Of a stretch of 21,899 bases of DNA, positions 17,359 through 19,516 are shown in pieces. Source of the stretch: a virus (lineage: Duplodnaviria; Heunggongvirae; Uroviricota; Caudoviricetes). Both the position numbers and the translations under genes were made by a program. The notes beneath the pieces were generated by a model. The model was not told the DNA's origin. It was given only the letters and a program-made list of their open reading frames with translations, and ran no database searches. Positions within the stretch are counted from its first letter, which is position 1. Each line of letters begins with the position of its first letter. Location of the stretch: the IMG/VR virus record IMGVR_UViG_2636415712_000011; one strand, written 5' to 3'.

Positions 17359-17407
17359 ATCTGTTCCTGTCCGAATAAAAAACGGGAGCCCGCCGTTACT
17401 TTATTCG

Positions 17408-18840
17408 TACCCCTTATAATGGGGTGTTAGCCAGCCAGACCCGGCATGATTACTGCCCCCAGTCGTCCATGATCCGGGGGGGGATGTCACCGGGTCTGGT
17501 GGGGCGCTGGTAACCGCTAATAGGGGTCAGGTCAGGCACTTTTGCCGGGACCGTCTGTAACGTGGATGCCGGTACCTGCTCCCCGTGGTTATCTGGTTAA
17601 CCCATATACAAGGGAGACAGAATGACCGAATCCAGCGATTACGAATCCGTCCAGGTCTTTATCGGCGTTGATGTCGGTAAAGATACGCATCACGCTGTTG
17701 CCATTAATCGTTCAGGTAAACGCCTGTTCGATAAAGCATTACCCAACGACGAAAACAAACTCAGGTCGCTAATATCTGACCTGAAACAACATGGTCAGAT
17801 ACTGCTGGTTGTTGATCAGCCAGCTACCATCGGTGCGTTACCTGTCGCCGTTGCCCGCTCAGAAGGAGTCCTTGTCGGATACCTCCCTGGACTGGCCATG
17901 CGCCGCATAGCCGACTTACACGCCGGTGAAGCTAAAACTGATGCTCGTGACGCTGCCATCATTGCCGAAGCTGCCCGTACCCTGCCTCACGCGCTACGCA
18001 CGCTGAAACTGGCTGACGAGCAAATCGCCGAACTCTCCATGCTCTGCGGCTTCGATGATGATCTTGCCGCACAGACAACGCAGGCCAGCAACCGTATCCG
18101 CGGCCTTCTGACCCAGATACATCCGGCACCGGAGCGCGTTCTCGGTCCGAGACTTGAGCACCCGGCGGTACTCGATCTTCTCCAGCGATATCCCTCACCA
18201 GAAAAACTCGCTTCGCTGGGTGAGAAGAAGCTGGCAGCCCAGCTCTGCAAACTTGCGCCTCGTCTGGGTAAACGCCTTGCAGCAGACATAGCTCAGGCAC
18301 TGGCCGAACAAACCGTCGTCGTTCCCGGCACGAATGCCGCTGCCGTAGTACTGCCACGTCTGGCACTCCAGCTCATCACGCTGCGTAAGCAAAGAGACGA
18401 GGTGGCGCTTGAGGTAGAACAGCGAGTTCTTGCTCACCCTCTTTACCCGGTCCTGACCAGTATGCCCGGAGTCGGTGTCAGGACCGCAGCCAGACTCCTC
18501 ACCGAGGTCGCCTGCCGCGCCTTCGCCTCTGCCGCACATCTCGCTGCTTATGCTGGCCTTGCGCCGGTAACTCGGCGATCCGGCTCGTCAATACGCGGTG
18601 AGCATCCCTCGCGACGGGGTAATAAAGCTCTCAAACGGGCGTTGTTCCTGTCGGCCTTCGCCGCGCTCAGGGATCCGCTCTCCAGGGCTTACTACACCCG
18701 CAAAATGAGTCAGGGAAAACGACACAATCAGGTGCTTATCGCCCTGGCGAGACGACGCTGCGACGTTCTGTTCGCCATGATGCGCGACGGGACTTTTTAT
18801 ACCCCGCAGGGGTCATAACATGCTTGACAACTTAATAGGG
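17408..18840 (+). mobile_element. IS110-family insertion sequence (boundaries approximate)
   Basis: DEDD-type transposase flanked by non-coding DNA. It sits exactly where the phage head and lysis genes are missing. Ends are inferred from a putative circle-junction promoter (TTGACA 18824..18829, TATAAT 17415..17420), not from repeats. Confidence 0.55.
17622..18818 (+). CDS. IS110-family (DEDD) transposase/recombinase, 398 aa
   Basis: N-terminal VFIGVDVGKDTHHAVAI motif and C-terminal GVGVRTAARLL...YAGLAPVTRRSGSS region typical of IS110-family transposases; AGGGAG SD 6 nt upstream of ATG. Confidence 0.9.
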   Translation: MTESSDYESVQVFIGVDVGKDTHHAVAINRSGKRLFDKALPNDENKLRSLISDLKQHGQILLVVDQPATIGALPVAVARSEGVLVGYLPGLAMRRIADLHAGEAKTDARDAAIIAEAARTLPHALRTLKLADEQIAELSMLCGFDDDLAAQTTQASNRIRGLLTQIHPAPERVLGPRLEHPAVLDLLQRYPSPEKLASLGEKKLAAQLCKLAPRLGKRLAADIAQALAEQTVVVPGTNAAAVVLPRLALQLITLRKQRDEVALEVEQRVLAHPLYPVLTSMPGVGVRTAARLLTEVACRAFASAAHLAAYAGLAPVTRRSGSSIRGEHPSRRGNKALKRALFLSAFAALRDPLSRAYYTRKMSQGKRHNQVLIALARRRCDVLFAMMRDGTFYTPQGS

Positions 18841-19013
18841 GCCCCCCCCGACAGACCTGTGCTATCGGAAAGAAAAAAGGCCATCAGCAAAACTCTGATG
18901 ACCTGAATCACCTTTACCAATATTGTATGAAAAAACACGCACGACTAATTGACAATAATTTTCATTTCCATTAAAAAAGATCGCGTAGCATTCTTAATTC
19001 ATGAGGAACTTTA

Positions 19014-19078
19014 CCCGCCAGCAATCTGAGTAGCGAAAGCTGTTCATCCCCAATGTTTTTGCTGGCGGGTCCTTTTTT
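19014..19078 (+). terminator. Terminator-like long hairpin on the plus strand
   Basis: Perfect 10-bp inverted repeat CCCGCCAGCA / TGCTGGCGGG around a 36-nt loop, followed by T6 on the plus strand only. Confidence 0.35.
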
Positions 19079-19516
19079 CTACGGTCCTCCTCCCCGGAGG
19101 GGGGCATTTCATTATTTTTCTAATCGTTACTGGTGAGAAGGCGGAAGAAAAAGCCAGTTCTTCGCCCCTAAATAACAGCATGATTCCAGTCCATGCAAAA
19201 TCTGATTTCCAGCTCACACATACCGAGCGCTGTACAAAAAACCGCCAGCCAAGGCAGTTAAGAGTGTGTTCCCGGGGTTTGCTTAGAATATTTTGTAAGT
19301 TGTCCGAAGAGATATTTACAACACCAGAATGATGAATCATCAGTCCCCTGCCAGAGGTTCACTACGTAACCTGACCGACAATGCACCATTCTGGTGCTGA
19401 AAAAAGAGCACTGGAACTGCAACAAAACAACATCACAGAACAGGAGATGGTAAGGAGTCAGACATTCCCACACAATATTGTGTCAGTGCAAATAACAACC
19501 TTCGTCTCAAATCTCG

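Follow-up and report, generated by a model that had tools for sequence, protein, structure and literature searches.

The cryptic lambdoid prophages DLP12, Rac and Qin of Escherichia coli K-12 have become non-inducible through large deletions and insertions of insertion sequence (IS) elements, and have kept some genes useful to the host. Decayed prophages of this kind are ordinary and already known in Shigella, where the ipaH islands are cited as characterised earlier and as occurring in every S. flexneri 2a isolate of the comparison in PMC4226921. In this work we have analysed the 21,899-nt stretch of DNA deposited as the IMG/VR virus record IMGVR_UViG_2636415712_000011 (Caudoviricetes), referred to in its whole length as the window. 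It carries an ipaH gene, a lambdoid tail module, phage tRNA genes and the late antiterminator gene Q, and a copy of ISEc20, an element of the IS110 family, occupies the position of the lysis, terminase and head genes. The window very probably represents nearly all that survives of a lambdoid prophage lying between yecD and yecE in a chromosome of the S. flexneri type, inactivated by deletion and scarred by IS elements. DLP12 and Qin keep their lysis genes, whereas here the tail module and Q have been retained and the cargo is an effector of type III secretion. Like the window, the S. flexneri ipaH islands consist of a chromosomal ipaH at the end of a degraded, IS-riddled lambdoid prophage, and the junction described below recurs identically in S. 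flexneri chromosomes. The window appears to be one of these islands, presumably that of the ipaH near aspS/yecD (ipaH1880 in the numbering of strain 301).

The closest intact relative was found to be the prophage at yecE of the enteroinvasive E. coli (EIEC) strain CFSAN029787 [NZ_CP011416.1; locus L002]. Like the window it resides in the yecD/yecE region and has an identical tRNA cluster, a 665-bp spacer of 99.8% identity, an FI gene 97.2% identical to that of the window, and tail genes of 97-98% identity in the same order. Reading from the tRNAs, it contains the same four tRNA genes and spacer, then genes for a class II holin, a YdfR fragment, lysozyme, Rz and a DUF4406 protein, followed by terS, terL, a W-like head-tail joining protein, portal, S49 protease, decoration protein D and major capsid protein, and finally FI, FII, Z, U and V. 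It differs from the window in keeping the holin-to-capsid block of 10.2 kb and an entire early region with integrase, in having a DNA methyltransferase gene and another type of Q in the Q region, and in the lack of ISEc20 from the target upstream of the holin gene. BLAST aligned window positions 16312-17389 with L002 6864-7941 and positions 18844-19828 with L002 18124-19108, leaving 10,182 bp with twelve genes (L002 7942-18123) absent from the window. An earlier note on this DNA, made from its letters and a list of its open reading frames (ORFs), had proposed that the lysis, terminase and head modules are absent, had put the loss at roughly 9-10 kb and had suggested alignment to an intact lambdoid genome; the EIEC prophage, located at the same site, provides that alignment, with the 10.2-kb block lying between the matching spacer and FI.

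The left break lies at 17389/17390, after ...AAAAACGGGAGC, which in the junction alignment is the stem/loop boundary of a terminator hairpin, GGGAGC-ATTTA-GCTCCC, that follows the capsid gene and was found in all intact relatives. The right break falls within CAT-AT/CCCG-CCCCCC-GACAG (slashes mark breaks and junctions here and below), 2-3 nt upstream of the holin start codon, where the uninterrupted target in CFSAN029787 reads CATATCCCGCCCCCCGACAG. Since the deletion junction is present in 36 independently fetched loci, many complete chromosomes among them, it is no assembly artefact. Relative to the closest intact relative, one contiguous lysis-terminase-head block of about 10.2 kb has been removed.

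The gene map (Table 1) was drawn from the ORF listing, ARAGORN and profile scans with Pfam and PHROGs. It confirms the order read earlier: on the minus strand Q is followed by the four tRNA genes, the spacer, ISEc20 and the series FI-FII-Z-U-V-G/T-H-M-L-K-I-J-lom-tail fibre, the left end being formed by dinI and ipaH. No ORF within the 21.9-kb window matched a holin, endolysin, Rz, terminase, portal, protease or capsid family in the Pfam and PHROGs scans. The interval between FI and the tRNAs (17359-19516), which had been described as about 2.2 kb holding an IS110-family element and about 0.7 kb of ORF-poor DNA, comprises 2,158 bp made up of 31 bp of FI-upstream DNA, CCGCC, ISEc20, a C6 run and the spacer, which has the character of a late leader. 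The claim would have fallen had the head and lysis genes been found rearranged in the neighbourhood. In near-identical genomes the stretch is flanked by yecD::ISEc20-aspS on the left and by IS911-yecE'-yecN-cmoA on the right, and as far as these genomes can tell there is therefore no room nearby for relocated copies.

The spacer might have held traces of the lost genes. Over positions 18853-19517 it shows 99.8% full-length identity in seven EIEC-type E. coli genomes and at least 98.9% in nine, and its first 366 nt are about 87% identical to the region upstream of the holin gene in about 1,500 records; in IHE3034 the match stops 13 nt short of a class II holin. The search of 18841-19516 for holin or endolysin remnants, which had been proposed as a check, gave none, sensitive blastn against phages returning only weak intergenic matches for the spacer. 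Two ORFs of 98 aa (19044-19340) and 71 aa (19258-19473) had no Pfam or PHROG match and were treated as non-coding, as was an ORF of 87 aa (17167-17430) that spans FI and the junction. Terminator-like hairpins are predicted on the minus strand at 19259-19240 and 18904-18878. By its sequence, the spacer is ordinary late-operon leader, the intergenic DNA between the tRNA and holin genes.

ISEc20 lies exactly at the scar. On its right, the join between the IS end and the spacer is identical to that of simple ISEc20 insertions at the same C-run in another prophage. On its left, the junction is composed of GGGAGC/CCG/CC/GTTAC and contains GGGAGCCCGCC. The element shares 99.4-99.5% identity with copies that carry the ISEc20 annotation in phage records of GenBank and in RefSeq, the same IS is found in the PPompW prophages (see below), and ISEc20 is included in the IS list of S. 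sonnei 53G (PMC7373316). It measures 1,449 bp (about 1,463 bp by BLAST), with the ends GTTACTTTATTCG... and ...AATAGGGGCA, and no terminal inverted repeats were seen on inspection. Its left-end sequence occurs in 1,455 of 5,426 complete E. coli genomes, at a median of two places per genome. In the window the FI-ISEc20 junction (17381-17397) can form, on the minus strand, a hairpin AACGG-CGGGCTC-CCGTT followed by a T-run, by which the lost terminator-like structure is partly restored.

The flanks of ISEc20 were collected from chromosomes with an identical transposase and from 30 viral contigs with the left-end sequence. The left flanks fell into 25 sequence groups, three of them homopolymer variants of the FI junction and two representing one site, which gives about 22 distinct sites. 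Three to seven C precede GTTAC in 21 of the 22 non-FI groups, the exceptions being the FI junction itself (one or two C) and L038 (two C), and most right flanks read (CA)C and then a run of four to seven C. ISEc20 thus inserts into C-runs, and the copy in the window sits in its own preferred target, at the scar not as a random passenger; the C-run site upstream of the holin gene is CCCGCCCCCCGACAG. A single fixed junction model (core CC, left end CCGTTAC) was compared with uninterrupted K-12 sites in yecD, dgcE and near sibA. It fits the holin, sibA and terS sites and fails elsewhere, with a mismatch of 4 nt at dgcE and 1-3 nt at yecD and a shortfall of two C at the FI junction. The register within the C-run is variable between copies, and nothing is built here on exact C counts.

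ISEc20 resembles IS621, the IS110-family element for which a bridge-RNA architecture has been described (PMC11208160), in that the recombinase has the same two Pfam domains, inverted repeats are absent, the target is sequence-specific, and the long non-coding left end is predicted to fold into two stem-loops with sequences matching the element's own ends. The left end (230 nt) gave a two-stem fold of -87.7 kcal/mol (z = -2.19). Within it, the terminus of the right end (18833) recurs as TAATAGGGG at 17518, GUAACG at 17557 complements the CGTTAC of the left end (17394), and CUGCCCCC (17453) together with a G8 run (17476) fits the C-run target. We infer that the left end encodes a putative bridge RNA. 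Weighing against this, Rfam in its E-value mode returned four tRNAs and no bridge-RNA family for positions 17000-20100. ISEc20 differs from IS621 in its target, a homopolymeric C-run and not a repetitive extragenic palindromic (REP) type sequence, in its apparent core, CC and not CT, in the number of C at the junctions, which varies from one to seven between copies, and in that its bridge-RNA function is deduced.

Several peculiarities of individual ISEc20 copies were noted in passing. The last base of the right end in the window (18843) is C (GGGGCC), whereas most copies have A (GGGGCA); C is found there also in L024, L037 and L038, and in the window it yields an unbroken C8 run. Four independent right ends (L008/L011, L018, L026 and L042) run not into a C-run but into GTTA(C/T)..., a sequence that mimics the left end of the element, and in L008/L011 this flank coincides with the loss of about 0.9 kb between sibA and the interior of mdtA; it looks as if the right end had recombined with pseudo-left-end sites in these four copies. 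The copies in dgcE and next to sibA have swapped flanks in L007/L008 and L011/L012 [CP097828.1 and CP026772.1] in comparison with the K-12 arrangement (L015), and the segment of about 10 kb from dgcE to yegL would therefore have been inverted between ISEc20 copies of opposite orientation.

The locus was met in four states in other genomes. State A, intact, is represented by CFSAN029787 and by the viral contigs L054-L057. In state B, ISEc20 occupies the same C-run upstream of the holin gene without any deletion; it was seen in contigs of four genomes (L021, L022, L029 and L030), with the left flank ...TTTTTTCCATCTGATACATATCCCGCCCC/GTTAC and the right flank of the window. One of these (L030) has a P21-type holin, lysozyme, Rz, TrkH and terS beside ISEc20 and is a different prophage backbone. 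The holin 5' leader is therefore a recurrent and genuine preferred target of ISEc20. State C, with deletion and IS as in the window, comprises the 36 loci mentioned above, among them S. flexneri SFBU1023 and a record titled E. coli ECMA0423. The same junction was found in every S. flexneri-type genome examined, and in all ten contexts of the exact FI protein (33 contigs read) the junction carried ISEc20. State D, the same deletion junction without the IS, reads GGGAGCCCGCCCCCCGACA and stands at the start of one contig, L048 [IMGVR_UViG_2531839494_000003].

Because one end of the deletion is no more than 3-4 nt away from where a site-specific recombinase crosses over, an IS-linked event is the most likely one, and we incline, with modest assurance, to the view that ISEc20 activity at the target upstream of the holin gene caused the loss of the block. 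Two routes can be envisaged. The target core could have recombined with a target-like half-site (...GCCCG-CC) in the terminator between the capsid gene and FI, or a break at the target core could have been repaired against the terminator hairpin in the same place. By either route the intervening DNA would be lost and the IS target kept, and ISEc20 could then enter and leave the scar scarlessly, which would give the IS-free junction of state D.

Several observations weigh against this reading. What connects the IS with the deletion is position only, the break being 3-4 nt at most from the crossover point. At the left junction the CCG that flanks the target on its left has been kept, and a crossover at the core would lose it unless the capsid-side allele ended in ...CCG; all intact alleles sampled read GGGAGC-ATTTA-GCTCCCG, which would leave nine extra nucleotides not seen in the window. 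At the left junction only two C precede GTTAC, against three to seven in most copies. The IS-free junction of L048 is a single contig end and fits a deletion that preceded the IS equally well. Finally, no intact ancestor with the FI-upstream allele of the window was found in the viral contigs, the complete E. coli genomes, two metagenome scans, the GTDB representative genomes or the contexts of the exact FI protein; all matches carried ISEc20, save L048, which is IS-free and already deleted.

In the search for a simple-insertion junction (holin start joined to the ISEc20 left end), none was present in the 5,426 complete E. coli genomes, and the matches of 79% coverage came from an unrelated ISEc20 site near iraM. 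The locus L135 [CP024984.1] could have been taken as proof that the FI-ISEc20 junction predates the loss of the holin gene. It contains, at 5849-7300, the spacer, an unoccupied C7 target, the first 100 nt of the holin gene, the end of another IS (TGAGGTGTACTGGCAATAGCGGACAC...), a stretch of masked bases and then the left end of ISEc20 next to FI. It was rejected as a later recombinant involving that other IS, because its spacer has four variant bases common to the state B type of prophage.

In the reverse order of events, the deletion would have come first and independently of the IS, as an illegitimate join of the replication-slippage type between the loop of the capsid hairpin and the DNA upstream of the holin gene, with the C-run kept and ISEc20 inserted later. 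A one-step deletion through the microhomology TCCCGC, present at both ends in the intact relative, does not explain the junction, as it would retain nine nucleotides (ATTTAGCTC) that are absent from the window. The junction of L048 holds a perfect empty target (GGGAGC/CCGCCCCCCGACA) and can be derived from the intact arrangement in a single step with 1 nt of microhomology; on this view the IS of the window looks like a simple insertion flanked on either side by a CC core. The left endpoint coincides with the stem-loop boundary of a hairpin, a second hairpin is found some 30 nt away from the right endpoint, and the state B contigs show that ISEc20 reaches this target unaided. Such a history requires the coincidence that, in a prophage of about 40 kb, a 10-kb deletion ended 3-4 nt from the crossover point of the IS. 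L048, one contig end, may equally be the product of scarless excision, the contexts of the exact FI protein all carry the IS, and the PPompW prophages present a second loss of lysis genes at an ISEc20 copy. We therefore regard a deletion prior to the IS as possible but clearly the less probable course.

As in the window, ISEc20 separates the tRNA cluster from the structural genes in the PPompW prophages of E. coli O145:H28 (L001, LC567822.1); its orientation with respect to Q and the tRNAs is that of the window, and here too the lysis cassette is missing. They differ in having kept the terminase, portal, protease and head genes and in belonging to another phage backbone with another integration site. 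Their ISEc20 (L001 12002-13460) has as left flank the native C7 target upstream of terS (GGATGATCCCCCCCGGGGCGGG in Stx2a_1447; L136 2750-2770), and its right flank is not the partner of this target and belongs elsewhere.

Half-targets of two different sites, as both PPompW flanks look to be, are what could be left by recombination between two IS copies. For the window this would mean that two ISEc20 elements in the same orientation, one upstream of the holin gene and one between the capsid gene and FI, underwent homologous recombination that removed 10 kb and left one hybrid copy, or, in a variant, that the right end of the second copy recombined with the holin-upstream target in a bridge-guided manner. 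Direct pairs of ISEc20 exist, the yecD copy lying about 17 kb away in the same orientation, and the inversion between the dgcE and sibA sites (L007/L008/L011/L012) would be another exchange between copies. The minus-strand GGCGGGCTCCCGTTTTTT could be the 3' half of a native terminator which, written on the plus strand as ...GCCCG-CC, resembles the left half of the target. In no sampled genome, however, do head genes occur along with an ISEc20 copy between the capsid gene and FI, and the intact alleles have no C-run there; L135, being a recombinant, does not bear on the model. We hold this course of events to be quite unlikely and retain, at the strength given above, ISEc20 activity at the holin-upstream target as the cause of the loss.

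The decay of the prophage is not confined to the late region. The frameshift that had been noticed in J is due to one extra A at 6262 (+1) in comparison with the intact J of phage 1717. The IS911 reported upstream of Q is likewise present; it starts at 20723, 29 nt upstream of the Q start codon, leaves about 30 nt of rusA, and is 100% identical to the copy annotated in phage Sf6. In CP055132.1 (L133), which matches window positions 16004-21899 at 99.88%, junction included, IS911 directly abuts a truncated yecE (116 aa) followed by yecN, cmoA and cmoB (L133 2216-3964), and the early region from int to rusA together with part of yecE is therefore gone there. In L133 the deletion associated with IS911 went past the prophage end and took host DNA as well. 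The loss of the early region is read from this near-identical genome, the window itself ending inside IS911, which tempers its extension to the window. On the left side in related genomes (L004/L006/L010), aspS and yecD::ISEc20 are found about 0.7 kb before window position 1. The yecD copy and the copy of the window are direct repeats with about 17 kb between them, comprising dinI, ipaH and the tail module, and this segment could be lost or amplified by homologous recombination.

The earlier description of a decaying prophage that still carries ipaH thus holds, with the modules absent and the ipaH ORF intact, and the decay extends to the early region as seen in L133. Going by which genes it contains and by their established functions, the remnant should be unable to lyse the cell, package DNA, be induced, excise or replicate. 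The full lambda-order set of tail genes from FI to the fibre has been kept together with Q and the late leader, and is conserved at about 98.5-99.9% across many genomes, which could speak for a domesticated tail-only particle, similar to an F-type tailocin and expressed from the Q-dependent late promoter. Such a function is most improbable: J is frameshifted, no lysis cassette is available for release, the promoter region upstream of Q has been lost to IS911, and ISEc20 stands antisense between the late leader and FI. In related copies Z, FI and V show further frameshifts or lack a gene call, and the conservation is explained by recent common ancestry.

Table 1 Annotated features of the 21,899-nt window and the evidence for their assignment
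Feature	Coordinates	Strand	Evidence and remarks
dinI-like gene	1..249	+	prophage left end; PF06183 DinI, E=1.2e-19; matches dinI beside yecD::ISEc20 in L004
MxiE-box-like GTATCGTTTTTTTACAT	637..653	+	196 nt upstream of ipaH
ipaH, 583 aa, leucine-rich repeat (LRR) and NEL E3 ligase effector	849..2600	+	PF14496 NEL, 5.9e-77; PF12468 LRR_TTSS, 6.6e-16; ORF intact
Tail-fibre genes: 485-aa fibre with phage_tail_N; 207-aa DUF4376 protein	2780..4811	-	
lom (Ail/Lom outer-membrane protein)	4833..5432	-	PF06316, 6.6e-125
J tip-attachment gene, two ORFs via +1 frameshift	5500..8980	-	J domains spread over both ORFs
Tail genes I, K, L, M, H (tape measure), T, G	9041..14807	-	Pfam Lambda_tail_I, Prok-JAB/NLPC_P60, Phage_tail_L, Phage_min_tail, TMP_2/Tape_meas_lam_C, Phage_tail_T, Phage_TAC_2
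Tail/connector genes V, U, Z, FII	14848..16945	-	Phage_TTP_12 and Big_2, Phage_tail_U, Minor_tail_Z, Phage_attach
FI (DNA-packaging chaperone), first gene kept past the deletion	16957..17358	-	PF14000, 1.2e-38; phrog_92
Leftover capsid-FI intergenic DNA	17359..17389	-	FI ribosome-binding region, T-run, 3' arm GCTCCC of terminator hairpin; aligned to CFSAN029787 and L054-L058
Deletion junction CCGCC	17390..17394		CCG, matching the three bases before the C-run of the holin-upstream target; CC, putative core
ISEc20 (IS110 family), GTTAC...GGGGC(A>C)	17395..18843	+	ends set from 25 flank contexts
Putative bridge RNA, ISEc20 left end	17421..17610	+	
ISEc20 recombinase/transposase, 398 aa	17622..18818	+	PF01548 DEDD_Tnp_IS110, 8.2e-49; PF02371, 7.7e-22
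C6 run, ISEc20 target	18844..18849		originally directly upstream of holin ribosome-binding site and ATG
tRNA-to-holin intergenic spacer, 668 bp	18850..19517	-	
Phage tRNA cluster Gly(tcc), Thr(tgt), Arg(tct), Met/Ile(cat)	19518..19827	-	ARAGORN; Rfam tRNA, 60-71 bits
Late antiterminator Q, 229 aa, intact	20004..20693	-	PF06323, 1.6e-89
Q ribosome-binding region and last bases of rusA	20694..20722	-	homology to related genomes stops at 20722
IS911, partial, runs off window end	20723..21899	-	IS3-family domains; terminal repeat starts at 20723; displaces DNA upstream of Q

The start of Q was placed at 20693 (the listed ORF reaches 20801), the exact 229-aa form being found in many genomes. On the minus strand between Q and the tRNA genes (window 19922-19934 and 19837-19866), a hairpin resembling a terminator, with a T-run, and a site resembling a promoter stand where the late promoter and first terminator are expected. 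The tape-measure gene H is without about 300 nt present in CFSAN029787 (window 13759-13766 against L002 4022-4318; about 303 nt, in frame), and the 8-nt overlap at the junction gives it the look of a repeat-mediated length variant.

The IpaH protein of the window has an N-terminal LRR and a C-terminal NEL E3 ligase domain in an intact ORF of 583 aa. The sequence GTATCGTTTTTTTACAT upstream of it matches, in 16 of 17 positions, the MxiE-box consensus GTATCGTTTTTTTANAG. It is the sole such site in the window; at least one match was obtained in 18 of 100 shuffled sequences, so the site is only modestly above chance. The remnant would persist as a fixed chromosomal island, with ipaH as its one evidently useful cargo. 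For annotation this means that the locus should be entered as an ipaH island, a prophage remnant which is non-inducible and which has a precisely mapped deletion of 10.2 kb, ISEc20 in its preferred target, an early-region loss bounded by IS911 and J as a pseudogene, and not as a prophage able to mobilise ipaH.

A wider reading of these data would be that ISEc20 is natively programmed for the C-run at module boundaries of lambdoid phages, 5' of the P21-type holin gene and upstream of terS, and that bridge-RNA-guided recombination of one of its ends, or of its target, with half-sites resembling the target actively excises lysis and head modules, a process that would then have taken place on two or more independent occasions, among them those that gave the yecE remnant of Shigella and PPompW. 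We consider this generalisation doubtful and offer as a lead, not as a result, that an IS110 element of the bridge-RNA type is repeatedly found at the boundary of the late leader and the lysis genes, with adjacent modules gone in two cases. If true, it would be an IS-driven route by which prophages and their virulence cargo, such as ipaH, become locked into the chromosome, and, should the link prove causal, a natural example of RNA-guided recombinases reshaping prophages.

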